64,000 bases of DNA from an uncultured Candidatus Saccharibacteria bacterium. Lineage in GTDB: Bacteria > Patescibacteriota > Saccharimonadia > Saccharimonadales > AWTP1-31. The translations under genes and the position numbers were made by a program. The stretch spans positions 371,880 to 435,879 of the forward strand of contig CAYPDT010000001.1 in NCBI GenBank assembly GCA_964409615.1, read 5' to 3'. A model generated the notes under the pieces. It made no database searches. It worked only from the letters and a program-made list of their open reading frames with translations, and was not told where the DNA came from. Below are positions 14,101-60,536 of this stretch, in pieces. Every line of letters begins with the position of its first letter. Position 1 is the stretch's first letter.

Positions 14101-17100
14101 TATCCACACCCAGTGTTGCCCCAACCAAACCACCAGATACCGCTGCACCAACTTTAAAATTGTACTGACTGAATATTTCTAGTGGATTAGCAATATCACC
14201 TTCTGCACCAATCTTATCAGGCAGACCACCCGTTACACTACCAGTGGCATAGGAGTTCTTTATATCTGCTTGCCCTATCATTAAGCCAGATAATCCACCA
14301 CCGATAGCCAAGTTACCACCACCGCGATCTTTCTGGACCTTAACATTACCAGTGGCATAGGAGTTATTAATAACGAGTCCGTGGGTTGATTCACCAAGCA
14401 CCGCTTGTGGGTCGTTATCCCAGTCCCGCTCCAAGTAGGTAGCTAGCGAGTATGGCACATCCATTCCTATACTAAGGCCTGTCAGACCACCAGCAAATGA
14501 AGCGCCCCCCACAAACTTATTTGTCAGGTGGTGGTTAATATTGCCGGTGCTATATGTATTCTGGATAGTGCCTGAGCCAAGGGTGATTCCTACTACGCCG
14601 CCACTTACGCCAACAAAACCTTGCTTAGAATCAACACTGATACTACCGGTACTGAAGCTGTTATTTATCATGAAGTTGCCGTCACGGTCATCAGCAATGT
14701 TGACCATAATACCGGCTAGACCACCGTTGACACCACCGTACATGTTGATAGCGGTTGATTGTTCTGGAGGATCATTATTGACGGCCGTTATGGAGCCAGT
14801 ATTAGAGCTGTTTGTAATGCGTGAGACCAATAGCAGACCACCTATTCCACCAGTAAAGCCACCATACACACCCCAGTTTGATGGAGTAGCCGAGCAATTA
14901 CGGATAGGTGAATTAGAAACAGTCGAATCCACCTGCACACCAATGCCGATACCAACAATTCCGCCCAAGGCAGCAATGCGTAGGCCAGAAAGCGACTCGC
15001 AGGCACTCACTAAGCCTGAGCTCTGCGAATTACGTATAATAACTGTCTGCGTGCTACCCATATACTGCACCGCCTGAGATATAATGCGTCGCTGTTCGAG
15101 ATCGCCAGCACCACTTTGCCCCGCTGCCACGCCCCTTATAAAGCCGTTTGCAATTGATGTGTTGAGGGCTAGGCCAATCAGGCCGCCCGAAACACTACCT
15201 TGCACCTCGCTCGATGAAGTACTGTTTTGAATTGTGAGCGGTATTGGCTGTCCAAAAGCGTTGCCAATTGACGAAACTGCCAGACCAATAACACCGCCTG
15301 ATAGGTGTCCGATAATCAAACCATCGGAATGTAGACCATCTACAACCATTGGCTCGCCAACTTTTGCATTTCCAATGTCGATAATTTCCGCCGTAGAGCG
15401 TACTGGCAAAAGCATTCCGATTACGCCGCCTGCCAAGCCACCGCGTATTGCAGTATTGACAGTCCGGATGTTGCTATATTGGCCCTCGCCTATGGCAAAA
15501 CCGATGACACCACCTGTCGCTACTTTTGCCATATTACCGTAGGTGTCGGTCACAAAGTTTGGCGAAATTGAGGCCAGCACATCACGTGCTGATACAAACG
15601 CGCCACCTGCCCCATAGTTAAGCTCATTAAGATTAGTAGGTACGCGATCTGGTAAGTCTACTTGGCTAAAATCTAAATCCGGGCCATCTGGCAGACCGTT
15701 TTGATCAGAGTCTACCGCCTCATCCAATGCATAATTTGCAACCACAGCGCTATTGGCAATAGTTACATTTGTGACGACTGCTCGATAGGTAAAGGCAAAC
15801 AGCCCAACTGCTCGGAAGTCTTGGGATGGCCCGGTCTGCAGTTCGGCAATAATACTGAGGTTATTTATCTTAAAGCCATTACCGTTAAAAGTACCCATGA
15901 ATGGTGTAGTGTCATTAGCCTGTTGCTGGAAGCCAATCGGTTGGAAGTCAAAGTTTGAACAATCAATGTCTGCTGTCATTGTATAAACACCCATTGGGTC
16001 ATCATTGATATCTTGTAGCTGCTGGCAAGTAGAGACGTTATATAGCTGTTGGGCAGGCGTTGTGAACGCAACAGGTTCACTCCATGGTCCTGGCCCCGCA
16101 ACATTAGCACCACGGAGTCGTACCTGATAGCTCGTCTGGGGATTAAGCTCCGCCATGCTAGCACCAAATCGAGATTCATTTTCTTCGTCTGGGGGAATTG
16201 AAGTTGCATATTTGGTATAAAGTGCCTGCCATTCTTGTGTGCCAGTTTGACGATATTCGGCGCCATAAGAAGTTGCGCTCTCAAGGGCATCCCAACTAAT
16301 GGCAGCGCCTTTTGGTTCTGGGTTAACCTGAATATTTTCGGGGGCGGTTTCTGGCATGCCCGTTGCAAACTCGAAGATATCACTGCTCAAACCGGGATCA
16401 AATGCCCCAGGCTGTAGCCGCGAATGGTAGCGGGCACGAACCTTAAATTCATACTTACCAGGGATACTTAAACCACTAATGGTGACTGTATCCGCGTCAC
16501 CTGGTTCCCTCACTGTCCAATCAGCGCTATTTCCCTGGCTCTTATCGCGGTAGTATACGAGGTAGTCTGTTATCTGTTCCGTCCTTGATCCATCACCTGA
16601 TGGTTTTACCCAAGACACAATAAAATCTCCACCATCACGTTGCACTGCAATATTTGTGGGTGCATTCGTTCTTGACGGCCATGCAAGCATCGTTGGGTAT
16701 GAATCACCTAATAGCCAGTCAATAGATGCATCCCAATCATCAAAGAAGCCCGTCTGGTTGGCACTCGTAAAGAAATCGGGCTCAGAATTATCACTATTAA
16801 CAACCTGACACTGCGTAATCGACTCCCCCAAACCAAAGTTCTCTCCACACTGGTTTTCAGGAGTAATGTTCGTTACTTGCGTAGCACTCTGGTCAAACGC
16901 GTTGCTCCCAAAGTCTATATATCCAGGAAGTTGCGAGTTGCCGTTTTTAGCATACGAAGTATATAGACCTCGTGCCCGTTCCATATTGGCAGCCCGAACC
17001 TCGCCCGCGGCAAAGTTATCGGCCAGCATAATGTGTTCGGTAACATCTTGACTTTCATATATGCTCCCAATAAGCCCTGCAGCAGAAACTTCTGACGCAG

Positions 17101-25436: not shown

Positions 25437-26312
25437 ATGAGTTTGCTAGACTTCCAGGATCAATTCAAGACTGAAGAAGCCTGTCTCACATTCCTTGAGG
25501 AACAACGCTGGAAAAATGGGCGTTTTTGCCCCCACTGTGGTTCGTATGAGACTTATAAGTTTAAAGATGGCAAACTATTCAAGTGTCAGGACTGTAAAAA
25601 GCAATTCACCGTTAAGGTTGGTACCATATTTAGCGATAGTCACGTTCCTCTAACTAAATGGTTCTATGCGATTTATCTTAATACCTCACTCAAAAAGGGC
25701 ATTTCCTCAATCCAACTAAGCAAATATCTCGGTATTACTCAAAAATCAGCCTGGTTTATGCTCCAACGTATTCGTTATGGCGTCGAAGCTGCTGGGCGCA
25801 GCGATCTACTAAATAACATTGTTGAAGTGGATGAAACCTATGTTGGTGGTAAACAAACAGGTGCACGTCGTGGTCCCGCCGATAAGGCTGTGGTCTTCGG
25901 TGCAGTTGAGCGTGGCGGTAAAGCCATGATTAAACATGTACCAAGTTCAGGCGTGCGAGTGCTGATACCTGAAATTCAGAAGAACATTAGTCCAGATGCT
26001 ACCATTTATTCTGATCAATACGGGTCATATAAAAGCCTAAAACGTCGTGGCTATACACATACTACTGTCAACCACTCCAAGCTAGAGTTTGCTCGCGGGC
26101 TAGTACACACAAACACAATTGAAGGAGCTTGGGCACACTTCAAGTTAGGCATTGCAGCTATTTACCTGGGCGTAAGCGTTAAGCATTTACAGCTCTACTG
26201 CAGTGAGTTTGAGTATCGCTATAACACCAAAGAGATGACTGACTACGAACGGTTTGCAAGTTGGTTCAGTAACTGCCGAGGCAGAGTTACCTATAAAAAA
26301 CTAATAGCCTAG
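25437..26312 (+). CDS. IS1595-family (ISXO2-like) transposase
   Basis: N-terminal transposase zinc ribbon (CPHCGS...FKCQDCKKQFTVKVGTIF) and a DDE region with VEVDETYVGGK. Confidence 0.88.
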   Translation: MSLLDFQDQFKTEEACLTFLEEQRWKNGRFCPHCGSYETYKFKDGKLFKCQDCKKQFTVKVGTIFSDSHVPLTKWFYAIYLNTSLKKGISSIQLSKYLGITQKSAWFMLQRIRYGVEAAGRSDLLNNIVEVDETYVGGKQTGARRGPADKAVVFGAVERGGKAMIKHVPSSGVRVLIPEIQKNISPDATIYSDQYGSYKSLKRRGYTHTTVNHSKLEFARGLVHTNTIEGAWAHFKLGIAAIYLGVSVKHLQLYCSEFEYRYNTKEMTDYERFASWFSNCRGRVTYKKLIA

Positions 26313-26447
26313 CCCCAAACTGCTGCTTTTGCTGCCTTAGTTCTTTGCCCCCACGGGCGAGGGCAAGATCACGCTTGTGTCAATCTGTAAAATCAGGAAT
26401 ATAGTGGTACCTACCTTTATATAATACGGGTAGGAGGGTTTGGCAAA

Positions 26448-27311
26448 ATGAAACTAACTCAAATTCCAAAAATAACCTATAAACAAAGAACCATACTAGA
26501 TCTAATATATACTCATAGATTCTTAACCAGAATACAAATACAAACAATGCTAAAACACAAAGATAAAAAGACTATTAACCTATGGCTTAAGGATCTTAGA
26601 GAAAAAGAATATATAAACTGGATCTACAATAAAGATCACTTTGCTGAGAAAATTAAACCAGCTATCTACTACCTCGGTATTAATGGCATACGCCACTTTG
26701 GTAACCTAGACTTTCACCCAGACGAAGAAATCCGCAAACGCTACCGAGAGCATGAACGAAGTCAGACATTTATTAATCGCTGTCTTCTACAAGCGGATGT
26801 CTGCCTAGAGCTTGATGACGAACGAAACGGCACCTACTACACTACAACCTGTTACTACTACGAAACTGAAGCCGATTACCGCAGCGAGATGCGTTACCAT
26901 TTCTTGAGCGTTAACGAGTTAATCCATCCCGATCTGTGTATTGCCCAATCTGAGGGTGATACGGATGACAGCATTGGTGATCCAGACACTACCATAGCTA
27001 GCTACTTACTGGAGATTTTTGACGCAACACTACCACGGTACCGGTTACGCAACAAGCTAAAGAAGTACGTACAGTACTTAGAGGAAGAATTAGACGAATG
27101 GGATGAACAGACGGGTGAAGATCCAAGACCGACTATATTACTGGTCTGTGCTAGCCTCACAGACCTCATCTACGCTAAACGTAGAACCAGAGGACTGATG
27201 GCAGAGATCTGGGAGTATGAGGATGAGGATAGACCGAATATAAGATTTACTACTATACAAAAGCTAAAAGATCGTGGGGTTCTGGAAGAAGTTATTTGGG
27301 AGACAGCGTAA
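26448..27311 (+). CDS. replication-relaxation family protein (passenger)
   Basis: N-terminal wHTH pattern (ITYKQRTILDLIYTHRFLTRIQIQTML...WLKDLREKEYI). A later segment is HPDLCIAQ...YLLEIFDATLPRYRLRNKLKKYVQY, as in Replic_Relax proteins. AGGAGG RBS. Confidence 0.6.
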   Translation: MKLTQIPKITYKQRTILDLIYTHRFLTRIQIQTMLKHKDKKTINLWLKDLREKEYINWIYNKDHFAEKIKPAIYYLGINGIRHFGNLDFHPDEEIRKRYREHERSQTFINRCLLQADVCLELDDERNGTYYTTTCYYYETEADYRSEMRYHFLSVNELIHPDLCIAQSEGDTDDSIGDPDTTIASYLLEIFDATLPRYRLRNKLKKYVQYLEEELDEWDEQTGEDPRPTILLVCASLTDLIYAKRRTRGLMAEIWEYEDEDRPNIRFTTIQKLKDRGVLEEVIWETA

Positions 27312-27367
27312 GTAGTGTACTAAATTATAATTATTCCACTGACGTAATGGTATAGCATATTGTCAAA

Positions 27368-28177
27368 CTACTTGGTGTCCACATTTTCGAAGAGCTGCTT
27401 CTTGTAGTCTTCATGATCAGCCTGATTTGCAAAGGTTAGGATAGCAGAATTACCGATGCATTCCCAGGATCCACTACTATTCTTTTTTACATAAATAGCG
27501 ACATACTTACTATTGTTACCATCCTCAGATATTTTATATACGACCGATGATTTATTGCCTGATGTGGCTTGATAGTCTACGACAGGCTCTATACTTATTG
27601 CCTTGCTAACAACAGGAGCGGCTTTATTTATAAACCCGGCTTCAGTCGTAACGTTTTTTCCTTCACTACCTAAACTTGCATAAGCTGCGGCGAATGACCC
27701 ATTCTTAATGTTTGTGATATAGGATTGTGCTGCTGCCTTGCTTGCGGAATCATCGTCTTTGGCTGTTTGATTTGACTGATCTAATTTATTTCCTAGATCA
27801 GTTACTTCTTTGACGCCTTTGTTAACTCTACTACCCCAGATTCCAAATGCAATCAGTGTAGTAATAAAGAAAAAGGTCGCAACATAAGCAATTTTATGTG
27901 ATTTTTTAGCAAATTGCGTGCGTTTTCGAAAGAATAGCACCAGTACGACTAATGATACCGGGATACTCATAATAGCTAACGGTGCAAATATAGTTGATAA
28001 AACACATAATATTAACACAGCTATAACACTCTTTGATGTTTTCAGTTCTACCTGTTGCTGAGGCGATGACGTTACTGGACTTGCTAGGTTGGGTGCAGTC
28101 GGCACTGGTTGTTGAACTTGGGGTGGTTGACTTGTAGTTTGTTGATTTTGATCCATAGCATAAACTTTATACATCAT
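27368..28177 (-). CDS. membrane protein: Gln/Pro-rich N-terminus, 3 TM helices, DUF4878-like extracytoplasmic domain (passenger)
   Basis: 269-aa ORF. The likely start is MDQNQQTT (28156). The C-terminal domain reads AAQSYITNIKNGSFAAAYASL...YVAIYVKKNSSGSWECIG. Confidence 0.55.
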   Translation of the reverse strand: MMYKVYAMDQNQQTTSQPPQVQQPVPTAPNLASPVTSSPQQQVELKTSKSVIAVLILCVLSTIFAPLAIMSIPVSLVVLVLFFRKRTQFAKKSHKIAYVATFFFITTLIAFGIWGSRVNKGVKEVTDLGNKLDQSNQTAKDDDSASKAAAQSYITNIKNGSFAAAYASLGSEGKNVTTEAGFINKAAPVVSKAISIEPVVDYQATSGNKSSVVYKISEDGNNSKYVAIYVKKNSSGSWECIGNSAILTFANQADHEDYKKQLFENVDTK

Positions 28178-28246
28178 GCCGGTATTTTACAAGCAGGAGT
28201 AGTCTGATATTGGAAATAGGTATTCTTTACTAATCCAATATTACTG

Positions 28247-29278
28247 TTGGTCGTTGTTATTATTTATAGTAATGCTTATACTGCCATAGTAATGGATCAA
28301 GAACAAACACCAGTTCCGACACTACAACATACACCAGATACTAGTCAGCAAAGTATGCCTGTAGCTGATGTACCCAAGTCGCCTATGCGTCGAAAGCGGA
28401 ACATAATTATAGCAATTTGTGCGATCTCCTTACTGATAGTAATTATCGGGGGTGTTTTGAGTAAAGTTAGCTTGCAAAGCGATTCAAGTCTTGCTGCGAT
28501 TGGTTGTAGTCCAAACGCTACTTCATACATTAAGTCTCACAAACTAACGCCCATTAGAGCTTGTACTAGTAAATCTGTCACCCTACTGCCCGACAATCAA
28601 CAGGTTGATGTTGTTGATATCGTCGTTGGAAATCGTTTCGACTCTTGCATAGATACATGCCATAACAAACCTACTTTGTCATTGATTTTGCAAGGCGGAC
28701 TCGAAGTGCACAAAGAGCTTCTTGATACTGCCAAAACTGTTGTTGATGACGAAAGCACTCAAGTTGACGGCAACAAGTTGACAATGTCAGAATTAGTTCA
28801 GCTCGGCTGTCCAATGGCAGTTCGTGGTGACGATGCTATTGCCAAGACCACACTCCCTTCGTCTAGTAAATTTATATATACATCTGGTGAATTCAAGGGT
28901 CTATACGAAAAAAGATTTGAGAATGTAACATTCGTATCGGGAACAGGTCTGACTTGTAAAGCGCCTAGTATATTATTGCGTGGAGATTCTAAGCAACGTG
29001 AACTAATTGCAACCCAAGCTACAGTAGTTACTCCTGCGCCAAGTACATGCCAAACACTTGCATGCAATATTGAATCAGCTCGTATTGCCGACCAGCCAAG
29101 TCGATGCACAACACTCGCCCCAAAAAACTATGGAGATGATTCCTACGCCGACAAACTTTATGGCACATGTGCCGATTACTTTGTTATTAAGCACAATGAT
29201 TTATCACTCTGTAGGCTTGACTCAGAAGTTGACAATAACTGCGAAAATAGAAATAAGCAATACATCCACAATCAATAA
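28247..29278 (+). CDS. single-pass membrane protein with Cys-rich extracytoplasmic domain (passenger)
   Basis: 343-aa ORF. The track start is TTG, and the likely ATG is at 28292 (MDQEQTPVP). TM helix IIIAICAISLLIVIIGGVL, with more than 12 Cys after it. Confidence 0.55.
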   Translation: MVVVIIYSNAYTAIVMDQEQTPVPTLQHTPDTSQQSMPVADVPKSPMRRKRNIIIAICAISLLIVIIGGVLSKVSLQSDSSLAAIGCSPNATSYIKSHKLTPIRACTSKSVTLLPDNQQVDVVDIVVGNRFDSCIDTCHNKPTLSLILQGGLEVHKELLDTAKTVVDDESTQVDGNKLTMSELVQLGCPMAVRGDDAIAKTTLPSSSKFIYTSGEFKGLYEKRFENVTFVSGTGLTCKAPSILLRGDSKQRELIATQATVVTPAPSTCQTLACNIESARIADQPSRCTTLAPKNYGDDSYADKLYGTCADYFVIKHNDLSLCRLDSEVDNNCENRNKQYIHNQ

Positions 29279-29538
29279 AGATTAAGCAGCTGCTTTCCTG
29301 GTAATACTTCGAGTAGCATTTCACTAACGAACCAAAATGGCAGAGCAATTTAAGTGATAAACTGTACCTATGACAGACCAGCGCAAGCCCAAGCCAATAA
29401 AAACCACAAAATTTACAAAGACTGTTGAAATTCTGGCCAATACAGCCCCTATTAGCAACAAGGAGATCGTCAAAAGATCTAAAAAGAGTAAGAAGATATA
29501 GATTATTCCAGACTCAAGAAGGTGATCACTATTTATTG

Positions 29539-29560
29539 GGTGTGTAAACTATATAGGCGC
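29539..29560. repeat. right terminal inverted repeat
   Basis: GGTGTGTAAACTATATAGGCGC, the reverse-complement partner of 25390-25411. Confidence 0.6.
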
Positions 29561-29569
29561 GTATTAAAA
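29561..29569. repeat. target-site duplication, right copy (GTATTAAAA)
   Basis: Identical to 25380-25388. Confidence 0.7.
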
Positions 29570-30779
29570 AGGTTGACGCAGGTTGGGTGACCGAATTGCC
29601 AACAACTGTAGTATTAATGATATCTAGCTTATTACCGTTAATTCCTAAGGAGCCGATGAATCCAGCAACTGAGTTGCGATTGTCAGGTGCAGGATTATTA
29701 ACCGTGTTATATGCAACCGTAACATTCTTAAAATGCTGTGACGAGGTAAGCACTCCTGTAATCATAAAGCCAGAAACTACAGGGAGATATGCCGCATTGT
29801 TAACAATTTGTGGCGTATCGACAGTTACACTATTGTTTGCCACAGTTGTAGCGTCAACGCTTAAGTCGATTAAAGTTGGAGAAACCGGACCAGCGTTCGA
29901 GACAATTACTATGCCAGCGATGTATCGCGACTGGTTGTTCATCACGACACTGTTATGTATCTTAATGGTCGAGACGCCAAGTAGTTGCGTGTCATTACTG
30001 CCCGATACGTAAGATTGAGGGTTAATGTACATACCGGTGTTCTGGCCGCTATCATCTAGAATCTTTAGCCCGTCAGCAATAAATTCGACATCCTTGCCAG
30101 CAGTATTGCTTCCAAGACCAATAACAGCACCGACTCCTTCTATAGTCGAAGAAGGGTCGGCATTATCATGAAAAATAGAATTTTTAATCGTTATCTTCTC
30201 TGTATTAACTACCTTGACTGCAGCTATTGAATCCGAAATATCAAGATTTTCCAGAATTGCTGTTGCCACACTATCCGCTTCAACAGCATAGGGCGCAGCA
30301 TCTGTAATACTCAAGTTTTTAATAGTGATATTCTTGGTATTCGCTGCTGATAAAAAATCAGTTTTAAAGCCATTATTACCACCGAGATTAATTTGTGATT
30401 CATTGACTCCAGCACCGTTGATAGTGACCGTTTTTGTGATGTTCGGTAAATCAGCAGAGACCGTAATTGTTCCAGATGGAATAGTAATTGTGTCCCCGGA
30501 CCCATATGCACCACTCGCAGTACACCCGGGGCCTCCGGAGTCGGCGGCATCATTTATTGCAGTAATGGCTTCCGGTAGGGTACAGCCCGAGCTAACCGTG
30601 AGCGTTGCAGCATGCGCTTGACTTGGGTTCAGAAAAAAGGCAGCCAAACCCATGAAAACGAGTATACCAAACAGATATTTTTGTGAGGTTTTTTGTATTA
30701 AAAGCATATGCTTATATTTAACCACGGACTAAGTCAATAGCCAAGATACGCCACCCGACTGAAGTTTAGTAAAACTATG

Positions 30780-40565: not shown

Positions 40566-40642
40566 TGGTAGCGGCGACAAGACTTGAACTTGTGACCCCA
40601 GGCTTATGAGTCCTGTGCTCTAACCAGCTGAGCTACGCCGCC
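40566..40642 (-). tRNA. tRNA-Met (anticodon CAT), elongator type
   Basis: 77-nt cloverleaf GGCGGCGTAGCTCAGCTGGTTAGAGCACAGGACTCATAAGCCTGGGGTCACAAGTTCAAGTCTTGTCGCCGCTACCA. It closely parallels the E. coli elongator tRNA-Met as I recall it. CCA is encoded. Confidence 0.85.
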
Positions 40643-42726: not shown

Positions 42727-44490
42727 ATGAACCAAAAATTTAAGAAGCTCACCATTATCCCAGCCCCGTCGTCAAAGACGTATATAGTTGCTAGCCTCAG
42801 TGTGTTTGTAGCCTGTATGGCTGTAACCCTATGGGGTTGGAATAGCGCAAAACAAAACCTGCACAATGATTTGCAAAATACGCTCAACAGCGGCACCAGT
42901 TCCGTCCGTGATACCATAGGCAACACTCTTAATTCATATACGGAGGTACTCCGCGGTGGAGCTGGATTGTTTAATGCTACCGAGAATGTGAATCAGGATA
43001 CGTGGCGCCGTTATATTGGCAGCCTAGACGCACCAGCACGTTACCCTGGCCTGCAAGCTGTTGGCTACATACAACTGGTGCAAGCGACCGACCTGGATAG
43101 CTTTTTACAGAACAACCCCTCTCCTTTTGGTGATCAGTACGATATTCAACCTAACTACCCACGCGAGCTTTACGCTGTTAGTCGTTTTGCTGAACCACTC
43201 ACTGAGCGTAATGCCAAAACCATCGGATACGACCCGTTTACCGAACCAACCCGCCGGCGTGCCATGGAGCAAGCTCGTGACAGTGGTCAGGCGACGATTA
43301 CCATGCGCACAACGCTTCTGCGAGATAACGAGCAGCCTCAACCTGGCTTTCTAGTGTATCAACCAGTTTACCGCCCAGGTGCCCCTACCGACACGCTAGC
43401 CCAGCGACGTGAAGCCATACAGGGTTATATTTCGGCTGGAGTTCGTACTCATGAGTTAATTGATAAGTTGTTTGCAAAGGTTATTACTAAAGATTCTGCT
43501 ATATTGATCTACGATGGCACTGAACAAAAACCAGATAATCTTATCTACCAATCTGCCACGTACCAAAACTTAATCTCACAAAAAGGCCTTACCACCACTA
43601 GCCAAGTATTAGAGGCTGGGCCTAATAAATGGACAATCGTCACATTTGTAAATGATAACGTTGCCTCAGGCGTACAACGCAAACAGCCTCAAGAAATTTT
43701 GATTGGTGGGGCCGTTTTCAGCTTTTTGATAGCATCCTTGTTATTTATTATCATGACCAGCCGAGCGCGTACTATTGCCAATGAAAAAAGTTTAGAGGTA
43801 CAAGAAGCCAAAGACAGTCTAATCTCGCTGGCTTCGCACCAGTTACGCACCCCCGCTACTGGCGTTAAGCAGTTCGTGGGAATGGTGCTCGAAGGCTACG
43901 CTGGCAAGATAACTAAAGAGCAGCGACGGATGCTCGAAAAAGCCTATAGCAGCAATGAACGACAGTTAGAAATTATTAACCAAATTCTCCACGTTACTCG
44001 AGCCGATTCTGGACGCCTAGTATTGAACAAAGAAAAACTAGATGTGAATAGCCTGGTTCAATCAATACTAGATGAATATCGCGCCGCACTGGCAAAACGG
44101 GGGCAGAAAATTATCTTTAAAAAGACTACAAAAAGCTTGTTGGTATCTGCTGACCGCCAGTATTTGTCTATGGCAATCGACAATCTTATTAGTAACGCTA
44201 GCAAATACTCTTACCCCCAAACCAGTATTCGGGTTAGCACCCGGGCTGATGGAGATAATATTGTCATTCAGGTGACCGATAAAGGAGTCGGGATTCACGG
44301 AGACGATATGCACCGCTTATTCCAAAAGTTTTCGCGCATCGATAACGAATTATCTGTCGAGGCCGGCGGTAATGGTATTGGGCTATACCTCTGTCGTGAA
44401 ATTATTGCCTTACACAACGGCGATATTAGTGTCGATTCCGACCCAGATGCTGGCTCGACCTTTACCATATCCATACCGAAGCGTTCCTAA
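42727..44490 (+). CDS. sensor histidine kinase with CHASE-like extracytoplasmic domain
   Basis: Layout is TM, a roughly 290-aa sensor (...YPGLQAVGYI...GYDPFTEPTRRRAMEQARDSG...), then a second TM. H-box SHQLRTPAT. HATPase_c motifs are NASKYS, DKGVGI and GIGLYL. Confidence 0.85.
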   Translation: MNQKFKKLTIIPAPSSKTYIVASLSVFVACMAVTLWGWNSAKQNLHNDLQNTLNSGTSSVRDTIGNTLNSYTEVLRGGAGLFNATENVNQDTWRRYIGSLDAPARYPGLQAVGYIQLVQATDLDSFLQNNPSPFGDQYDIQPNYPRELYAVSRFAEPLTERNAKTIGYDPFTEPTRRRAMEQARDSGQATITMRTTLLRDNEQPQPGFLVYQPVYRPGAPTDTLAQRREAIQGYISAGVRTHELIDKLFAKVITKDSAILIYDGTEQKPDNLIYQSATYQNLISQKGLTTTSQVLEAGPNKWTIVTFVNDNVASGVQRKQPQEILIGGAVFSFLIASLLFIIMTSRARTIANEKSLEVQEAKDSLISLASHQLRTPATGVKQFVGMVLEGYAGKITKEQRRMLEKAYSSNERQLEIINQILHVTRADSGRLVLNKEKLDVNSLVQSILDEYRAALAKRGQKIIFKKTTKSLLVSADRQYLSMAIDNLISNASKYSYPQTSIRVSTRADGDNIVIQVTDKGVGIHGDDMHRLFQKFSRIDNELSVEAGGNGIGLYLCREIIALHNGDISVDSDPDAGSTFTISIPKRS

Positions 44491-46077: not shown

Positions 46078-46152
46078 CGCGGGGTAGAGCAGTGGCAGCT
46101 CGTGTGGCTCATAACCACAAGGTCGCAGGTTCGAGTCCTGCCCCCGCTACCA
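46078..46152 (+). tRNA. tRNA-Met (anticodon CAT), initiator-like
   Basis: CGCGGGGTAGAGCAGTGGCAGCTCGTGTGGCTCATAACCACAAGGTCGCAGGTTCGAGTCCTGCCCCCGCTACCA. It has a C1xU72 mismatch at the top of the acceptor stem and strong resemblance to bacterial tRNA-fMet. Only 2 of the usual 3 anticodon-stem G-C pairs are present. Confidence 0.8.
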
Positions 46153-51461: not shown

Positions 51462-53045
51462 GTGTTTCATCTTAAAAAAGCCTTTTACGGCTTGTCTGCT
51501 GTTCTCTTTGCAGCAATAATTAGTTTCCCTGTTATATTGCCAACTAAAGCCTCGGCTGCAATTCCATCAAACCTATCCCGTGTGCCTAAGATTACCTTTA
51601 CATTCGATGACGGGCTACTCAGTGCTCGCTCGTTAGCCGCTCAAACACTGCAGACCTATAACTACACTGGGGTAAACTATGTTGCCTCTAGTTGTATCGG
51701 CATGACCACCGCACCAAACACCTGCCAAGCAAACACAGACGGTGTGTACATGACATGGGCACAGGTAAATGAACTGCAAGATACTTACGGCTGGGAAATT
51801 GGTTCACACACCAGCACTCATCCATATCTAGCAACTAGTGGCGACGAACAGCCAAATCCTCTTACCAACGCGCAGGTAATCAACGAACTAACCACAAGTC
51901 GGACAGCAATCGCTACCAATACCGGTATTGCGCCGACGGCCTTTGCTTCACCATATGGCGATTACCAACCAAACGGCAACCCTGTATTAGCAGAGGTAGC
52001 AAAGCTCTATACCTCACATCGTGGTTTTGCTGATACCGGTTACAATGTTAGCCCGTGGGAAACTACCGCAACATTGCCAGCAGATAATTACCCACTTAAC
52101 AACTACCTCATTCGCACCCAGCAAGTACAAGCTGGTGTGTCGGTAGCCACCGTTCAAAGTTACATTGATAAAGCTATCGCCGACAATGCCTGGTTAGTAT
52201 TAACCTTCCACGACATCACTGCTGGTGCAGCAAGCACTAACCCAGATGACTACCAGTATAGCAACGCCGACCTTGCTACAATTGCTGCATACGCTCGTTC
52301 AAAGAATGTACTTGGCACCAACGTCAGCAATGGCCTAGCGCTCATGAGTGCCACTGGCACTAACCTGTTGCCAAACAGCAGCTTCGATAGCGCCATCGGC
52401 ACCTTTGATGCAGCTAACCCAAGCACTACCACCTGGACAACCGACAATCCTAGTGTCATCAAACAAGACACCGGGAACCACGGCAACTACCCAAGCAGCA
52501 CCAATTCGATAAGTGTTACCGACAGCTCAACTGCAACACATTTGTTTTCACCGATTGTATCAGTTACCGCCGGCCAGACATATATTTGTAATATGTTTAT
52601 CAATGTTACGACGGTAACTAGTGGGGAAGTGGCCTTCTACATCGATGAATATGACGCCACTGGCACTTACCTAACAACTCAGTATAAGAAGTCAATCTTC
52701 CCTAGCAATAACCCCCTAGTTAAGAACTGGAACTTTAGCTACGTCCCAACCACTGGCGCTGCAAAAGCCCGCTTGCAGGTCTACTTTGCCGCTAACTCAG
52801 GCGTGGCAGCTTATATCGATAATGCGCAATTATTCGCTGCTGACGATAGTATCGTCACTCCACCGCAACCCACATACACTGCAGGCGACCTAAACCACGA
52901 CGGTAAAGTTGATGCCCTTGACCTCAGCACTCTATTAACCAACTGGGGTCAGCCCAACAAGACCGCCGCAGATGGCAATATTAACGGCGACACCGCCGTT
53001 GACGCGCTTGATTTATCAACCTTACTAGCAAACTGGAGCAAATAA
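51462..53045 (+). CDS. secreted polysaccharide deacetylase (CE4/NodB), CBM-like domain and C-terminal dockerin
   Basis: Signal peptide ...TKASA. NodB motifs are TFTFDDG and GSHTSTHP. The CBM4_9-like stretch is NLLPNSSFDS...W. The terminal dockerin is GDLNHDGKVDALDLSTLLTNWG...GNINGDTAVDALDLSTLLANWSK. GTG start with an AAGGAG RBS. Confidence 0.8.
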   Translation: MFHLKKAFYGLSAVLFAAIISFPVILPTKASAAIPSNLSRVPKITFTFDDGLLSARSLAAQTLQTYNYTGVNYVASSCIGMTTAPNTCQANTDGVYMTWAQVNELQDTYGWEIGSHTSTHPYLATSGDEQPNPLTNAQVINELTTSRTAIATNTGIAPTAFASPYGDYQPNGNPVLAEVAKLYTSHRGFADTGYNVSPWETTATLPADNYPLNNYLIRTQQVQAGVSVATVQSYIDKAIADNAWLVLTFHDITAGAASTNPDDYQYSNADLATIAAYARSKNVLGTNVSNGLALMSATGTNLLPNSSFDSAIGTFDAANPSTTTWTTDNPSVIKQDTGNHGNYPSSTNSISVTDSSTATHLFSPIVSVTAGQTYICNMFINVTTVTSGEVAFYIDEYDATGTYLTTQYKKSIFPSNNPLVKNWNFSYVPTTGAAKARLQVYFAANSGVAAYIDNAQLFAADDSIVTPPQPTYTAGDLNHDGKVDALDLSTLLTNWGQPNKTAADGNINGDTAVDALDLSTLLANWSK

Positions 53046-53046
53046 T

Positions 53047-54015
53047 ATGAAGATCGGAACAATTTTAGCCAGCGTATCTGCTTTTGCAGTCATAGCCCTT
53101 AACAACACACCTGTTCAAGCCGCTGCATCAAGCCTGTACATTACGCCAGCAAGTGGCAGTATTACGCAGGGCAGTAGCCTCACCGTTAGCATCGTCGAGA
53201 ACGGCGGTAACGTCAACGTTGTAACTGCTAACCTCAACTACGACGCTAGTAAACTTCAGTGTAATGGTGTGGGTGGCGGTAGCTTTGCGCAAACAATCTC
53301 GGCTAGCTGTGGTGGTGGCGCAGTAACCGTCAGTCGTTACGTCACTCCTGGCCAGCCTGGTCTTAATGGAGCCCAAACTGTAGCCACCGTAAGCTTTACT
53401 GCGCTTGCTAGTAGTGGCACAACCAGCATTACGGTCGGTGCATCACAAGTTGCCAGCGCAGGAGTAAACACGCTGGCAAGTACAGCTGGTGGTAGTTACA
53501 CTCTTACCGCTCCTGCAACTACTCCAAGTAATCCAACCACCCCAAGTGGGAACAACAATGGCTCTTCGCCACAGGGAAGCGCGGTAACGTACGGTCCCAA
53601 AGCATCTCCAGCAAACAACACGGCAACGCATAGCACAACCAATTCCGGAACGGCGACCAGCAGTGCAGCTACAACCGCAAAGCCATCTGATGTTCTTTCG
53701 GAGCAACAATCAGACAAAAGCGACAAAGATGCGGACTCAAACAAGTCAGATAATAAAGCTCAAACTAGTGCTAAAAAAGATTCATCAAATACTGCGCGGA
53801 ATTTAGCAATTCTACTAGGCTTAATGGCAGTTGTTGGTGGTATTATCGCTAGCCAGCGCTACCGTGATGCGCAGGCAGAAAAAGCAGCCGTAGCTGCAGC
53901 AGCAGTTACTGCCAAGAAGGCAGCAACGAAGAAAGCAAAGGCGACAGCAAAGACCACAAAGAAAGTCGTCAAAAAACCTGCTGCAAAGAAAAAGCCAGCA
54001 GCTCGCAAAAAATAA
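53047..54015 (+). CDS. membrane-anchored cohesin-domain protein with Lys/Ala-rich cytoplasmic tail
   Basis: Signal peptide, then a cohesin-like module (SSLYITPASGSITQGSSLTVSIVENGGNVNVVTANLNYDASKLQ...VATVSFTALASSGTTSI). An S/T-rich linker follows, then TM helix LAILLGLMAVVGGIIA. The tail reads AAKKAATKKAKATAKTTKKVVKKPAAKKKPAARKK. The start is 1 nt after the upstream stop. Confidence 0.7.
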   Translation: MKIGTILASVSAFAVIALNNTPVQAAASSLYITPASGSITQGSSLTVSIVENGGNVNVVTANLNYDASKLQCNGVGGGSFAQTISASCGGGAVTVSRYVTPGQPGLNGAQTVATVSFTALASSGTTSITVGASQVASAGVNTLASTAGGSYTLTAPATTPSNPTTPSGNNNGSSPQGSAVTYGPKASPANNTATHSTTNSGTATSSAATTAKPSDVLSEQQSDKSDKDADSNKSDNKAQTSAKKDSSNTARNLAILLGLMAVVGGIIASQRYRDAQAEKAAVAAAAVTAKKAATKKAKATAKTTKKVVKKPAAKKKPAARKK

Positions 54016-54758: not shown

Positions 54759-55243
54759 ATGCAACAAGGATCAAACAAGAACACAGCCATTATTGGCATC
54801 ATCGCTATCGTCATTATTGCTGCAGCTGTTATCGGCACCATTGCACTAAAGCCACAATCTAACACTGCCTCAGGTAATAACGGTTCGTCGACTAGTAGTA
54901 CTACTTCAGATTCCACAACCACCTCAACCAATATAGACCCGAATGCTACTTACAAAACGGTACCTACACTGCTAGCGGCTCATACAGCACCCCCGAAAGT
55001 ACCGAAGATATTGAAGTGACGATTACCGTTAGCAACAACAAGATTACCGAAGCGTCAGTTTCGCAACAAGCAAGCTCCCGCGAATCCCGAGAGTACCAAG
55101 CCGATTTCGCCAGCGGCTACAAAAGCCAAGTCGTCGGAAAAGACATTGCAACATTACAGCTATCTAGAGTTTCTGGTTCATCACTCACCCCCCGTGGCTT
55201 CAATGAAGCTCTCAACATCATCCGTTCTCAAGCAAAGTCATGA
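54759..55243 (+). pseudogene. FMN-binding-domain membrane protein, interrupted by a 1-nt frameshift at about 54954-54958
   Basis: ORFs 54759-55019 (TM plus S/T linker) and 55016-55243 (FMN_bind-like ...VSGSSLTPRGF...) are one gene. In the second frame the text reads through as ...NGTYTASGSYSTPESTEDIEVTITVSNNKI. The shift is at an A4 run (TACAAAACGG). Confidence 0.65.
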
Positions 55244-56136
55244 TCTCAAAGCCTGCCGCGCAGGAAATACAACTTGAGTTCGAGGCCATCGGTACGCATT
55301 GGCGTATTAATCTTAATGCTCCGGCAGTTGATGCTCCGCGCATCAGCGCAATTATCACTCGTCGAATCAAACAATTTGATGCAAGCTATTCCTGCTTCCG
55401 CCCCGACTCATGGCTGGTGTTTGTCGGCAATAATCCCGGGAAGCACCAAGTGCCGACTGACTTTGAACCAATATTTAAGCTGTACCAAAACTTATACAAA
55501 CTAACAGATGGCGCGGTGACGCCATTGATTGGTGACGCTATGGAAAGAGCAGGGTATGATGCAAATTACAGCCTGGTTACTAAACCACTCGTTGCAATAC
55601 CTGATTTTACTGAAGCCCTCCAATTAAAGGATAATACTTTACATGTTAAGTATAAATGCGTTATTGATGTAGGTGCTGCTGGCAAAGGATATTTAGTAGA
55701 TTTAGTCGCCGCTGAATTATTGAAGCAGGGAATTAGTAGTTTTACTATCGATGCTGGGGGTGATATCTACACCACATCCCCTACCCCTCTAGCAATCGGG
55801 CTAGAGGATCCGTCGGATACCAGCAAAGTAATCGGCACCACAACCTTGCAACATAATAAAGCAATATGTGGGTCTGCCAGTAACCGAAGGCGCTGGGGTG
55901 ATATGCATCACATCATGAACCCGCACACATTAAAACCAGTTTCAGATGTTACAGCAACGTGGGTAGTTGCCGGTAGCACCATGGTGGCCGATGGTCTTTC
56001 GACTGCCTTGTTCTTTACAGGGCCGCAACAGCTTAGCAAGGACTTTAATTTTGAATATGTCATCTTGAAAGCGGATAATAGCACTATGGTCTCGAAAAAC
56101 TTTGCAGGAGAAATTTTTGATGAAACAAATAGATAA
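55240..56136 (+). CDS. apbE: FAD:protein FMN transferase (ApbE family)
   Basis: ApbE pattern (...AVTPLIGD...DVGAAGKGYLVD...TIDAGGDI...GSASNRR...HIMNP...ADGLSTALF). Overlaps the upstream stop (ATGA). Confidence 0.85.
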   Translation: MISKPAAQEIQLEFEAIGTHWRINLNAPAVDAPRISAIITRRIKQFDASYSCFRPDSWLVFVGNNPGKHQVPTDFEPIFKLYQNLYKLTDGAVTPLIGDAMERAGYDANYSLVTKPLVAIPDFTEALQLKDNTLHVKYKCVIDVGAAGKGYLVDLVAAELLKQGISSFTIDAGGDIYTTSPTPLAIGLEDPSDTSKVIGTTTLQHNKAICGSASNRRRWGDMHHIMNPHTLKPVSDVTATWVVAGSTMVADGLSTALFFTGPQQLSKDFNFEYVILKADNSTMVSKNFAGEIFDETNR

Positions 56137-57634
56137 TCTTCTTAACCGAATTACCATGTACAAACTCCTACTCTGGGGGCTTCGTGCACTATTTGCCATA
56201 TCCTGGATATTTAGCATTGCTGGTGTATTGCCGTACGGCGCTGTTCGCCCATTAGTTAGCATCAGCATACTTATCGGTGTGAGCTTTGTAATTAATTTTA
56301 TCCTAGCCAAACTATACAAAGTTGCCGCCAACAGTGAATCTACCAATATTACTGCCCTGCTGTTATATTTTTTGTTCCAACCACCTCGCACTATTAGAGA
56401 AGGTATTGCTCTTGGGCTAGCGGCGGTCATTGGTATTGCTTGCAAATATGTGGTGGTCTACAAAGAACGACACATATTTAACCCTGCCGCCTTTGGTGCG
56501 GCAGTCATTGGACTAACAAGCTTGTTATATACCCGCTGGTGGGTTGGCGGAGGTAGTATGTTTATTTTTGTATGTATTTTGGGCTTGTTGCTGGTACGAA
56601 AAATCCATCGTTTTCCAATGGTGCTAACTTTTGTCTTTACAGCAGTGGCACTGAGCGTATTTCGTAATCCTAGCACATCATCTGCCTTCGAGTTAGTACG
56701 CCACACCTTAGTATCCTTCCCTATCCTATTCCTGGGAGTCACCATGCTTACCGAGCCTGTCACTACACCACCGCGCCGATACCAACAAGTACTGTATGGC
56801 CTTGTAGTGGGGCTGCTTGTTAGCTCGGGTCTGCATATCGGCGACCGCTACCTCACACCAGAATTAGCATTATTAGTAGGCAACTTACTGGTGTTTATTT
56901 TAGCAATCCGCGGCCGACAACCACTACTTAAAGAGTCTGTGAATGAAATCGGCAAGACTATTTTTGAATACCGCTTTAAGCCTGCAATGCCGCTTGCCTA
57001 TACGCCGGGCAAGTACGTAGAACTAACCCTTCCCCTTCAAAAAACAGACTTTAGGGGTAATCGCCGAACATTCACCATTGCATCATCACCAACCGAAAAA
57101 GATATCTTATTTGGTATCAAAGAGGTTGCCCCCACTAGTGCCTTCAAAACAGCGCTTCGAGCCATAGACACAGGCCATGAAGTCACGGCAAACAACTTGG
57201 CTGGTGACTTTTTACTACCCACTAACCCCAAACAGAAACTTGTCTTTATTGCCGGCGGTATTGGCGTCACTCCTTTCAGGAGCATGGCCAAGTACTTAAC
57301 TGATACCAAACAAAAGCGCAACATAACCTTGTTCTACTGTGTTAGCGACCCCAAACAAATTGTCTACAAAGATATTTTTAAAGAAGCCGAAGAAATTGGG
57401 CTAAAAGTAGTGTACGTGTTAAATCCTGGCAAAGACCAGCCCGTGCCTTCTAATTGGAAGGGGGAGACCGGTTTTTTGACCAAGGAACTCATCAGCAAGC
57501 ATGTTCTTGATTACGACAGCCGAGTATTCTACATATCTGGGCCAGACGTAATGGTGCAAGCCAATAAAAAACTACTACGTAGTATTGGGGTAAAGCGGCA
57601 CAACATTAAGACTGACTACTTCTCGGGCTACTAG
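56102..57634 (+). CDS. fusion of an RnfD/NqrB-like membrane domain with a ferredoxin-NADP reductase-like FAD/NAD(P)H module
   Basis: N-terminal polytopic region with HIFNPAAFG and MLTEPVTTP motifs. The C-terminal region has RRTFTIASSP (FAD) and FIAGGIGVTPF (NAD). An alternative start MKQIDN lies at 56120. Confidence 0.75.
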   Translation: MQEKFLMKQIDNLLNRITMYKLLLWGLRALFAISWIFSIAGVLPYGAVRPLVSISILIGVSFVINFILAKLYKVAANSESTNITALLLYFLFQPPRTIREGIALGLAAVIGIACKYVVVYKERHIFNPAAFGAAVIGLTSLLYTRWWVGGGSMFIFVCILGLLLVRKIHRFPMVLTFVFTAVALSVFRNPSTSSAFELVRHTLVSFPILFLGVTMLTEPVTTPPRRYQQVLYGLVVGLLVSSGLHIGDRYLTPELALLVGNLLVFILAIRGRQPLLKESVNEIGKTIFEYRFKPAMPLAYTPGKYVELTLPLQKTDFRGNRRTFTIASSPTEKDILFGIKEVAPTSAFKTALRAIDTGHEVTANNLAGDFLLPTNPKQKLVFIAGGIGVTPFRSMAKYLTDTKQKRNITLFYCVSDPKQIVYKDIFKEAEEIGLKVVYVLNPGKDQPVPSNWKGETGFLTKELISKHVLDYDSRVFYISGPDVMVQANKKLLRSIGVKRHNIKTDYFSGY

Positions 57635-57660
57635 CCCCCTCGACAATTCACTTTTGCTTG

Positions 57661-57679
57661 TCCAAGGTCGGACCTTGGA
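57661..57679. repeat. extragenic palindrome copy 5 (TCCAAGGTC-G-GACCTTGGA)
   Basis: Lies 27 nt after the stop at 57634. Its left flank CTTG is identical to copy 1. Confidence 0.85.
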
Positions 57680-57765
57680 AAGACATAAAAGGTGAGGCTT
57701 GCGTTGCATTACTATATTTTGTATAGTAATGCAGTAAGGTACGTTCTAAATCTGGAGGAATAGTT

Positions 57766-58701
57766 ATGAAAGCAGCACAAATTAACGAATATGGTCACGC
57801 TGATAAAATAGCCGTGGTAGAAGTAGATGCACCTACAGCAACAGAAGGGACGGTTGTAATACATGTACAGGCCGCAAGTATCAACCCTTTTGATACGGTT
57901 GTGCGTGAAGGATACATGAAAGAAATGATTCCTTTGGACTTGCCTGTGACACTTGGCGGAGATATCGCTGGTGTTATTGCTGAAGTCGGTAAGGATGTAG
58001 CTAACCTGCAAGTCGGCGACACCGTTTACGGACAAGCAAATGTAGTTGCCGGTAACAGTGGTGCGTTTGCAGAATTTGCACGAACCAGCAGCACGCAGGT
58101 GGCTAAAGCACCATCGAATCTAACCATTCAACAAGCCGCTTCCCTACCCCTCGTTGGCGTAAGCGCATTACAAGCATTGCTGGACCATATCAACCTGCAA
58201 TCTGGTCAGAAACTGTTTATCCATGGTGGTGCAGGTGGCATTGGCTCTATTGCAATCCAAGTCGCGAAGCATCTTGGTGCGTATGTTACAACCACCGCAA
58301 CTGGTGATGGTATCGATTTTGTAGAAAGCCTGGGCGCAGATGAAGTAATTGACTATAAGGCTGAAGATTTTAGTGAAAAACTGTCTGACTTTGATGCAGT
58401 CTTTGAATTAGCCGGGGGTAAAGAGTTCGATAAAACACTGACAATCCTTAAAAAAGGTGGCGTTGCGGTATCTATGAATGCCCAGGCAAATGAAGCTAAA
58501 GCAACTGAGCTGGGCGTGACTGCCATAAGCCAGATGACACAAGTTACCAGTGAGAAACTCGAAAAACTAACACAGCTGGTAGAAGAAGGTATTGTCACAC
58601 CGCAAAATGAAAAAACGTTCAGTCTGGCTGAAATTAGTAAAGCATTTGAAGCACGTGAGTCGGGCTCTGTTAAGGGTAAGATTGTTATCGCAATAGCGTA
58701 A
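57766..58701 (+). CDS. NADPH:quinone-oxidoreductase-like medium-chain dehydrogenase/reductase
   Basis: MDR fold with the GGAGGIGS Rossmann motif. GGAGG RBS. Confidence 0.85.
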   Translation: MKAAQINEYGHADKIAVVEVDAPTATEGTVVIHVQAASINPFDTVVREGYMKEMIPLDLPVTLGGDIAGVIAEVGKDVANLQVGDTVYGQANVVAGNSGAFAEFARTSSTQVAKAPSNLTIQQAASLPLVGVSALQALLDHINLQSGQKLFIHGGAGGIGSIAIQVAKHLGAYVTTTATGDGIDFVESLGADEVIDYKAEDFSEKLSDFDAVFELAGGKEFDKTLTILKKGGVAVSMNAQANEAKATELGVTAISQMTQVTSEKLEKLTQLVEEGIVTPQNEKTFSLAEISKAFEARESGSVKGKIVIAIA

Positions 58702-59154: not shown

Positions 59155-59313
59155 CTGCAGTCATTATATCAATAGTGGTAGTGGTATACTGCACCTATGA
59201 GTAAAACCACTACAAAAACTAAGAATAAAACGATTAAAACACCAGCTAAACAAAAAAGCGACTTCTTTTTAGTGCTCCTCTGACTTTCCGGAGTTTCAGC
59301 TATCTCGTACATT

Positions 59314-60460: not shown

Positions 60461-60536
60461 GGGGGTGTAGCTCAGTGGTTAGAGCAGCGGGCTCATAACC
60501 TGTTGGTCGAAGGTTCAATTCCTTCCACCCCCACCA
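60461..60536 (+). tRNA. tRNA with anticodon CAT, tRNA-Ile2 (lysidine)-like
   Basis: GGGGGTGTAGCTCAGTGGTTAGAGCAGCGGGCTCATAACCTGTTGGTCGAAGGTTCAATTCCTTCCACCCCCACCA. The D-arm and variable region resemble E. coli ileX as I recall it. tilS is present in the window. Confidence 0.75.

Follow-up and report, generated by a model that had tools for sequence, protein, structure and literature searches.

How might bacteria of the candidate phyla radiation (CPR) such as Saccharibacteria, in which respiratory chains are largely lacking, pass electrons from NAD(P)H to the outside of the cell? In this study, we followed this question at one locus of an uncultured Candidatus Saccharibacteria bacterium, a cassette at positions 54759–57634 on the plus strand of a 64-kb stretch of contig CAYPDT010000001.1 (the whole of which we call the window). 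A first-pass annotation had read this cassette as a three-gene flavin-transfer operon, had likened it to a stripped-down Rnf/Nqr set in which NAD(P)H is the electron source and a flavinylated FMN_bind protein the recipient, and had considered such a stand-alone module informative about CPR redox physiology. This interpretation is largely right, but it is not a new idea, as the cassette is a copy of a published, uncharacterised type of cluster. The 'NQR/RNF-like systems', defined as flavinylation gene clusters with a PF03116–PF00175 fusion, were described in 2021, mainly from CPR genomes, together with a proposed one-way flow that starts at NAD(P)H and ends outside the cell (Méheust et al., 2021, eLife, PMC8238504), and the complex of Ktedonobacter racemifer has since been modelled (Huang et al., 2024, PMC10979944). 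The domain content, the synteny and these published proposals bear out the likeness to a reduced Rnf/Nqr set; one point where the first description falls short is the carrier, which is frameshifted here. We consider it likely that the locus is a Saccharibacteria-type copy of this two-subunit NQR/RNF-like flavin electron-transfer module with its own ApbE, in which the carrier gene has been cut.

The cassette consists of four open reading frames (ORFs) and not three, at 54759–55019, 55016–55243, 55240–56136 and 56102/56120–57634, and the features that matter for the argument are the following (aa, amino acids; FMN, flavin mononucleotide; FAD, flavin adenine dinucleotide).

54759–55019, plus strand: 86-aa ORF, the 5' fragment of an NqrC/RnfG-like FMN-carrier gene, with a transmembrane anchor and a Ser/Thr-rich linker
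54954–54957, plus strand: run of four A's (A4), the site of a fixed 1-bp deletion in the carrier gene; A5 in the related locus L001
54957–55243, plus strand: 3' part of the carrier gene with the FMN_bind domain, in the -1 frame relative to the 5' fragment
55169–55183, plus strand: flavinylation-type motif VSGSS, whose last Ser is Ser142 (codon 55181–55183)
55240–56136, plus strand: ApbE-family FAD:protein FMN transferase of 298 aa, matching PF02424
56120–56935, plus strand: RnfD/NqrB-fold membrane domain of the fusion, residues 1–272, from profile, alignment and AlphaFold2/Foldseek
56936–57634, plus strand: FNR/NqrF-like two-domain NAD(P)H-flavin module of the fusion, residues 273–504, from PF00175 and PDB matches

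The annotated operon has the domain content proposed for it: FMN_bind, ApbE, and a membrane domain of the RnfD/NqrB fold joined to an NAD(P)H module of the NqrF/FNR type. Only the carrier as a single ORF has to be given up. The genes are tightly packed: the FMN_bind gene overlaps the ApbE start, which shares an ATGA with the carrier stop, and the start of the fusion gene is in turn overlapped by the ApbE gene. For such clusters the operational limit is a distance of five genes between the fusion and an ApbE or FMN_bind gene, and the window fusion gene falls inside it. Of the Pfam families that had been suggested for the check, PF04205, PF02424, NAD_binding_1 and, marginally, PF03116 were found and FAD_binding_6 was not. 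The motifs quoted for the fusion are all present, at residues 118–126 (HIFNPAAFG), 209–217 (MLTEPVTTP), 315–324 (RRTFTIASSP) and 376–386 (FIAGGIGVTPF).

The membrane–reductase fusion and its relatives

The fusion protein most likely starts at the ATG at 56120, which gives 504 aa, and not at the TTG at 56102, which gives the 510 aa first annotated. The ATG is favoured because it is preceded by AGGAG and because identical and near-identical copies in the databases are 504 aa long. Searches of the PDB with the full-length profile or model were swamped by FNR-family matches and were repeated with the membrane domain alone. PF03116 (NQR2_RnfD_RnfE) scores 27.9 bits with the full fusion and 30.7 bits with the membrane domain, against a cutoff of 27.7, and a phmmer search with Escherichia coli RsxD found no match among the window ORFs, so that the relationship to RnfD is visible only by profile and fold methods. 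A 15-sequence profile of residues 1–272 matched a single PDB family, RnfD of Azotobacter vinelandii (8ahx_D, E 4.5e-5), and the membrane-domain profile could be aligned by hhalign with E. coli RsxD over 188 columns (E 5.8e-5), including the FNPA and LT(D/E)PVT motifs. AlphaFold2 models were obtained with a predicted local distance difference test score (pLDDT) of 84.0 and a predicted template modelling (TM) score of 0.83 for the membrane domain and a pLDDT of 87.9 for the full-length fusion. When the membrane-domain model was compared with the PDB by Foldseek, the best 15 matches were all RnfD/NqrB chains (query TM-scores 0.58–0.71, E 4e-5 to 2e-3), followed by urea transporters (query TM-scores 0.41–0.49, E 0.06–1). 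Conserved motifs in the domain are NSES, FNPAA, WW and MLTEPxTTP. The RnfD/NqrB-like character of the membrane domain is thus upheld by profile, hhalign and Foldseek comparisons, with Pfam agreeing only marginally.

One part of RnfD is missing. According to hhalign, the fusion family lacks residues 148–221 of RsxD, an external loop of about 74 residues that carries the flavinylated Thr in GISQATPLD, and because this loop is deleted the RnfD-like domain is left without a site for covalent flavin. [quoted passage not shown] The 'covalently bound flavins' of the first-pass annotation accordingly have to be reduced to one, as only Ser142 of the carrier could hold covalent FMN. The model of the fusion has ten helices, and across the family the loops assigned as inside hold 15.3 lysine and arginine residues (K+R) per sequence compared with 3.0 on the outside loops. 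Both termini are therefore predicted to lie in the cytoplasm, which would place the reductase module inside the cell, in line with the cytoplasmic FAD/NAD(P)H module that had been annotated, and the site of the lost FMN loop outside.

In the reductase module, NAD_binding_1 (PF00175) matches residues 382–489 with 61.3 bits, and NCBIfam and PDB profile alignments cover residues 270–500. The best PDB sequence matches of the C-terminal 230 residues are the FAD/NADH domains of NqrF (E 1.8e-13), a similarity that takes in NqrF only from about residue 245 of the chain onwards, its FAD/NADH part, through to its end, and the family profile matches the E. coli flavin reductase Fre (1qfj residues 4–215, E 1.7e-19). 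Target TM-scores to two-domain FNR modules are 0.72–0.84 in Foldseek, and the list for the full-length model includes NOX of Streptococcus pneumoniae. The R-x-[YF]-[ST] motif appears as RRTFT within RRTFTIASSP, GGIGVTP is present, and the C-terminus is aromatic (...DYFSGY). No ferredoxin or 2Fe-2S domain was found in the module.

Relatives were collected in a scan that gave 80 loci, with one genome per species, 39 of which have full-length fusions. These 39 come from Patescibacteria (Saccharibacteria, Daviesbacteria, Nomurabacteria, Paceibacterota, Levyibacteriota, Uhrbacteria, Amesbacteria, Adlerbacteria and Peribacteraceae) and from Chloroflexota (Dictyobacter, Ktedonospora and Anaerolineae), and the nearest named relatives of the window locus are Candidatus Saccharimonadales. 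The order FMN_bind, ApbE, fusion is collinear in 28 of the 39 loci; a further locus has both genes beside the fusion in divergent orientation, six have the FMN_bind gene only, three have neither, and in one the neighbourhood is cut by a contig end. Two subtypes can be told apart. The common one, found in most loci, has an ApbE of about 247 aa and the canonical carrier motif V-D-x-x-S-G-A-T, and a subtype centred on Saccharibacteria, to which the window locus belongs, has an ApbE of about 300 aa and the carrier motif V-S-G-S-S-L-T. The membrane-domain profile was also run exhaustively with HMMER against 1.84 billion representatives, of which 608 matched at E<=1e-30 and 1421 at E<=1e-10, and most of the best 150 matches are 480–515 aa long, which is the fused length.

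The split carrier gene

The carrier had been annotated as one membrane-anchored FMN_bind protein; in the window, its anchor (54759–55019) and its FMN_bind domain (55016–55243) are in different frames. The 86-aa ORF contains the anchor AIIGIIAIVIIAAAVIGTI, a hydrophobic helix with a 19-residue Kyte–Doolittle mean of 2.97, followed by the Ser/Thr-rich linker; it goes out of frame after Lys66 and ends at the stop codon 55017–55019. The FMN_bind match (PF04205) is in the separate 75-aa ORF, where it scores 23.7 bits against a cutoff of 22 and covers profile positions 8–73 of 77, and it rises to 25.7 bits when the 161-aa carrier is restored. The -1 frame upstream of 55016 reads NGTYTASGSYSTPESTEDIEVTITV, which is the conserved N-terminal part of FMN_bind proteins, and since the conserved sequence continues in this frame the first two ORFs belong to a single gene that a frameshift has divided. 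The 3' part begins at 54957 with (N)GTYTASGSY... and runs through the FMN_bind domain. Its only start codon is the GTG at 55016, which overlaps the stop of the 5' ORF as GTGA, has a weak ribosome-binding context and would yield an anchorless product of 75 aa without the conserved YK(D/N)GTY...G strands.

The position of the lesion is given by L001, the closest relative with flanks, which is 96% identical in DNA, has a fusion protein that is 98% identical and has an intact 161-aa carrier gene. The window has AAAA at 54954–54957 and L001 has AAAAA, and this run is the single indel in the 2.9 kb that the two have in common. The carrier is also intact in other relatives. The exact truncated 86-aa product was found on 24 contigs from at least ten samples (three JGI metagenomes, six SRA runs and one ENA assembly), among them JGI 3300045347 and SRR12404947; all fetched copies of the allele are at least 99.95% identical to the window and have A4, and they vary among themselves at single-nucleotide polymorphism (SNP) positions 53758, 55225 and 57864. 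Because the same A4 allele is present on 24 contigs that differ by SNPs, and the indel is the only one in 2.9 kb against L001, an assembly error is ruled out and the frameshift is real. It is a fixed allele of one widely sampled strain. A programmed -1 frameshift is ruled out as well, since C-AAA-ACG does not have the form X-XXY-YYZ and a slippery heptamer is absent, and so is transcriptional slippage, for which the A4 run is too short. With no slippery site and only four A's, restoration of a full-length carrier is unlikely.

The ratios of nonsynonymous to synonymous substitution rates (dN/dS) between the window and L001 are 0.10 (carrier), 0.23 (ApbE) and 0.05 (fusion); until recently, purifying selection acted on all three genes. 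In the window and on the 24 contigs of the same strain, the membrane-anchored NqrC/RnfG-like carrier is not intact. As the carrier is split and the ApbE and fusion genes are intact, the most likely state of the cassette in this strain is that of a crippled, recently inactivated module. Two further length differences were seen. In L093 (JGI 3300045352), an extra T in the T-run at the equivalent of window position 56368 splits the fusion into products of 92 aa and 420 aa, either because the locus has decayed further or because this sample was misassembled. At window position 59252, beyond a DivIC-like gene and apparently outside convincing genes, there is an A6 compared with A7 in L001.

Putative flavinylation, sidedness and the proposed path of electrons

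The carrier motif lies in the context LSRVSGSSLTPRG. In an alignment of the restored carrier with 18 family members and RsxG, Ser142 stands in line with the FMN-bearing Thr of E. coli RsxG (TGAT) and with the SGAT of other members. The flavinylation consensus is D-x-x-[S/T]-G-A-[S/T] (PMC12052999), and in the window motif, S-R-V-S-G-S-S, the acceptor Ser and the S-G are in register and the Asp and Ala are replaced. In the mutagenesis of such motifs, Asp to Ala had a minor effect and Ala to Val left about 50% flavinylation (PMC12052999), and because these mutants retain flavinylation the window motif is possibly a variant that is still a substrate. Covalent FMN on Ser142 is therefore plausible from the alignment, and the flavinylation-like VSGSSLTP site that had been proposed holds as far as its acceptor is concerned; it does not have the canonical form.

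The transferase that would make this bond is a clear ApbE (PF02424, E 1.4e-41, 143.2 bits against a cutoff of 25.6, profile positions 2–251 of 266) and matches the PDB structures 1vrm and 6nxi at E about 4e-13. It has no signal peptide, lipobox or transmembrane segment, as had been noted before: the domain starts at about residue 10, and the maximum 12-residue hydropathy within the first 40 residues is 1.00, compared with 2.68 plus a lipobox in E. coli ApbE, a control that shows a clear lipoprotein signal ahead of the equivalent point. The missing export signal is shared by the ApbEs beside the related fusions and is thus a feature of the whole family, not peculiar to the window locus. It conflicts with the flavinylation of a carrier domain that is expected outside the cell. 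Possible explanations are that the C-terminal motif is flavinylated before export, that ApbE is exported by a non-classical route or that the carrier faces the cytoplasm.

The folds, the loop loss, the fusion topology, the register of the acceptor Ser and the synteny form the basis of the path that we propose for intact copies of the module, and from these we infer the cofactors, the direction of flow, the acceptor and any ion coupling. A hydride from NAD(P)H would first be passed to a flavin on the cytoplasmic FNR/NqrF-like module, whose fold and motifs are evident and whose cofactor and preference for NADH or NADPH are presumed. In RnfD/NqrB, a riboflavin near the cytoplasmic face and an FMN near the periplasmic face are about 8 Å apart, and RnfG/NqrC is located outside the membrane (PMC12174285). 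By homology, the electrons may next reach a non-covalent flavin near the cytoplasmic face of the RnfD/NqrB-fold domain, at the equivalent of the riboflavin site. The outer flavin would be the FMN that ApbE attaches, presumably covalently, to Ser142 of the carrier and that would fill the vacated outer pocket; this carrier FMN would supply the outer flavin position because the membrane domain has lost its own flavinylated loop. The carrier, tethered by its N-terminal helix and the Ser/Thr-rich linker, may dock as in the published AlphaFold-multimer model, in which its flavinylation site lies beside an apparent non-covalent flavin site (PMC10979944). Finally, the carrier flavin would reduce an acceptor outside the cell, giving a fermentative, respiration-poor cell an outlet for NAD(P)H.

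Comparison with known systems places the cassette closest to the NQR/RNF-like clusters, with which it shares the same genes (an NqrC/RnfG-like FMN_bind, ApbE and an NqrB/RnfD-like domain fused to PF00175) and the loss of the flavinylated Thr in the membrane subunit. It differs in the length of ApbE (about 300 compared with 247 aa), in the carrier motif ([S/G]-x-V-S-G-S-S-L-T instead of V-D-x-x-S-G-A-T) and in the frameshift of the window strain, and our 80-locus scan gave fusions in Patescibacteria and Chloroflexota rather than Actinobacteria. With the Na+-NQR of Vibrio cholerae (NqrA–F) it has in common the NqrB fold (query TM-score about 0.6), an NqrC-type carrier, ApbE as maturation factor and a reductase whose closest PDB match, as stated above, is the FAD/NADH domain of NqrF. 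However, NqrA, NqrD, NqrE, the 2Fe-2S centres and the ferredoxin domain of the NqrF-like part are absent from the window cassette, the NqrB-like domain has no covalent FMN and forms one polypeptide with the NqrF-like part, and the proposed direction of electrons through the B-type subunit is reversed; nothing points to quinone reduction or Na+ pumping in the cassette. As to Rnf (RnfABCDGE; RsxABCDGE in E. coli), RnfD is the sole PDB family matched by the membrane-domain profile and the carrier aligns with RsxG including the FMN-bearing Thr/Ser, whereas the 74-residue external loop is gone and an FNR-type module replaces RnfC at the cytoplasmic face. No homologue of RnfA, RnfB, RnfC or RnfE was found in the 64-kb window; when all of its ORFs were searched by phmmer with the E. 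coli proteins RsxA, B, C, D and G, nothing came up at E<0.01, and neither another Rnf subunit nor a second FMN_bind gene was found within the window.

More distant parallels exist. In the flavin-based extracellular electron transfer of Listeria (FmnB/PplA/Ndh2/EetAB/DmkAB), an ApbE-type enzyme likewise flavinylates an anchored FMN_bind protein that is thought to pass NADH-derived electrons to external acceptors, and PplA shows a weak NCBIfam similarity (E 2.3e-4); however, the membrane step there uses Ndh2 and a dedicated quinone in place of an RnfD-like fusion, and FmnB and PplA are exported lipoproteins whereas the window ApbE is without an export signal. A cytoplasmic FNR-like module is also joined to a membrane electron conduit in MsrQ-like and PepSY-like proteins that end in PF00175, as well as in NOX/FRE-type enzymes, and the fusions of the MsrQ-like and PepSY-like systems adjoin ApbE and FMN_bind genes (PMC8238504). 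Their conduits are di-haem cytochromes; the window protein instead has a haem-free RnfD/NqrB fold that presumably uses flavins.

Several observations weigh against the proposed path to the outside. The sequence likeness of the membrane domain to RnfD is limited to its last third, with a marginal Pfam match, and Pfam did not report PF00970 (FAD_binding_6) in the reductase module at E up to 1. The window carrier departs from the flavinylation consensus at two positions and is broken in this strain. The ApbEs beside the related fusions all lack a hydrophobic segment at the N-terminus and leave no space for an export signal. The orientation of the carrier anchor is not fixed by the charge rule, which proved uninformative as a guide (K+R 1.42 on the N-terminal flank and 1.26 on the C-terminal flank). 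When the 257 neighbouring ORFs of the 39 loci were clustered, no conserved acceptor, iron transporter or reductase was found beside the cassette, and we found no experimental work in the literature on any member of the NQR/RNF-like family.

Some of these points would fit a relay that faces the cytoplasm throughout, in which the signal-less ApbE flavinylates the carrier inside the cell and the carrier shuttles electrons from the FNR-like module to the cytoplasmic face of the RnfD-like domain, and from there to a membrane-soluble acceptor such as a scavenged quinone or into ion coupling, like the second half of Na+-NQR. ApbEs of the cytoplasm are known, one being that for the fumarate reductase of Klebsiella (PMC12052999), and the absence of an export signal throughout the family and the ambiguous anchor are in keeping with such an arrangement. 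In this strain the anchorless 75-aa ORF, which keeps nearly the whole FMN_bind match, could then still work, and ApbE and the fusion have indeed stayed intact and conserved across many samples despite the split carrier. However, that ORF is without the YK(D/N)GTY...G strands and has a weak ribosome-binding context, and NqrC/RnfG homologues sit on the outer side of the membrane, towards which the emptied FMN pocket of RnfD/NqrB also opens (PMC12174285). On the fusion, the lost RsxD loop falls in an outside loop, the published multimer model docks the carrier at the outward pocket (PMC10979944) and the long Ser/Thr/Pro-rich linkers after the anchor suggest an external tether. We therefore regard a wholly cytoplasm-facing relay as unlikely. 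It is similarly doubtful, in our view, that the family uses a strictly cytoplasmic ApbE, with a carrier that is flavinylated before export or faces the cytoplasm and a 75-aa fragment that might still serve ApbE and the fusion.

The electrons could also have a narrower use, if the module were an assimilatory reductase that passes them from NAD(P)H to extracellular Fe(III) or another metal for uptake and not a general redox outlet. Analogous NAD-binding fusions in MsrQ-like and PepSY-like systems have been tied to iron reduction (PMC8238504), but no iron transporter or siderophore gene lies beside the cassette in the window or recurs across the 39 loci, where the recurrent neighbours are instead a two-component system and a MacB-like ATP-binding cassette (ABC) transporter, in four to six loci each; a metal reductase seems to us quite improbable. 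The membrane domain might also be primarily a solute or ion channel of the ammonium/urea-transporter fold that the reductase regulates or energises, with ApbE and FMN_bind as accessory or coincidental neighbours. RnfD/NqrB is evolutionarily related to the urea-transporter fold family and ion paths have been proposed for it (PMC12174285), and urea transporters do come next in the Foldseek list; the RnfD/NqrB matches are, however, far stronger, the signature motifs FNPA and (L)T(D/E)PxT are conserved, and that ApbE and FMN_bind are syntenic with the fusion in 28 of 39 loci is no coincidence, so that a channel is very improbable. The flavin electron-transfer module with an outward-facing carrier thus remains our preferred reading.

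Surroundings of the cassette and its meaning

Among the related loci, common-subtype cassettes are often flanked by recurrent sets of neighbours (L005, L012, L031, L034, L035 and L039; L008, L017, L018 and L037). A pair of histidine kinase and response regulator flanks such cassettes in five to six loci, and others, in four to six loci, have beside them a MacB-like ABC transporter set together with a small membrane protein rich in Gly/Asn; these flanking genes hint at regulated expression or a linked export function. Variation in the cassette itself includes two tandem FMN_bind carrier genes upstream of the fusion without an adjacent ApbE (L012:3955-4955), and a carrier immediately upstream of the fusion, again without an adjacent ApbE, in L013 and L016.

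Downstream of the window cassette there is, as first annotated, a gene for a medium-chain dehydrogenase/reductase (MDR) of the PIG3-like type (57766–58701), which is not conserved beside the cassette and does not form part of the unit. Its membership in the operon is ruled out by a 131-bp spacer and its own AGGAG, by a 773-aa gene that lies in between in L001, and by its absence in L002. The intervening gene (L001:2941-5262, minus strand) has LPG_synthase_C and DUF998 matches; the spacer at 57634–57766 of the window and the extra 2.3 kb of L001 represent an insertion or deletion difference between sister strains. In a scan for promoters and terminators, the counts did not exceed those expected from shuffling.

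The window is a piece of ordinary chromosome that encodes DnaK, LepA, MurJ and FtsH. ARAGORN found three tRNA genes in the 64 kb, all tRNA-Met (CAT), at 40566–40642 (minus), 46078–46152 (plus) and 60461–60536 (plus), presumably copies of the initiator, elongator and/or tRNA-Ile2 type. A dockerin type I domain forms the end of two predicted surface proteins (51462–53045, plus; 4404–5999, minus), accompanied in one by a polysaccharide deacetylase domain and in the other by CARDB and Big_7 domains. Shortly upstream of the cassette, 53047–54015 (plus) encodes a protein of 322 aa without a Pfam match, in which a signal-like N-terminus is followed by a middle part rich in Ser, Thr and Asn and by a C-terminal transmembrane helix, and whose tail is very rich in Lys and Ala (…KKAATKKAKATAKTTKKVVKKPAAKKKPAARKK). 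The largest ORF of the window, of 2281 aa, is at 11186–18031 (minus), the region 26001–30000 has a G+C content of about 0.406 compared with about 0.45 elsewhere in the window and may be acquired DNA, and 42727–44490 (plus) encodes a histidine kinase whose extracellular sensor is a CHASE domain (E 9e-50), a type uncommon for a reduced genome.

As the idea of a conduit has already been published for this family, the window locus is a well-documented example and not a discovery, to which several new details can be added. The strain with the fixed carrier frameshift is a natural knock-out that, together with its intact, 96%-identical sister, offers a natural comparison; the Saccharibacteria subtype joins the Ser-type VSGSS motif with a longer ApbE; and the signal-less ApbE beside all related fusions sets a testable question on the site of flavinylation. 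If ApbE proved to be strictly cytoplasmic, the picture of 'extracytosolic flavinylation' would have to be revised for the NQR/RNF-like family, and if flavinylation came before export, minimal CPR cells would not need an FAD exporter. A self-contained flavin conduit from NAD(P)H to the outside would be among the few routes by which CPR bacteria could shed reducing equivalents or reduce external substrates.

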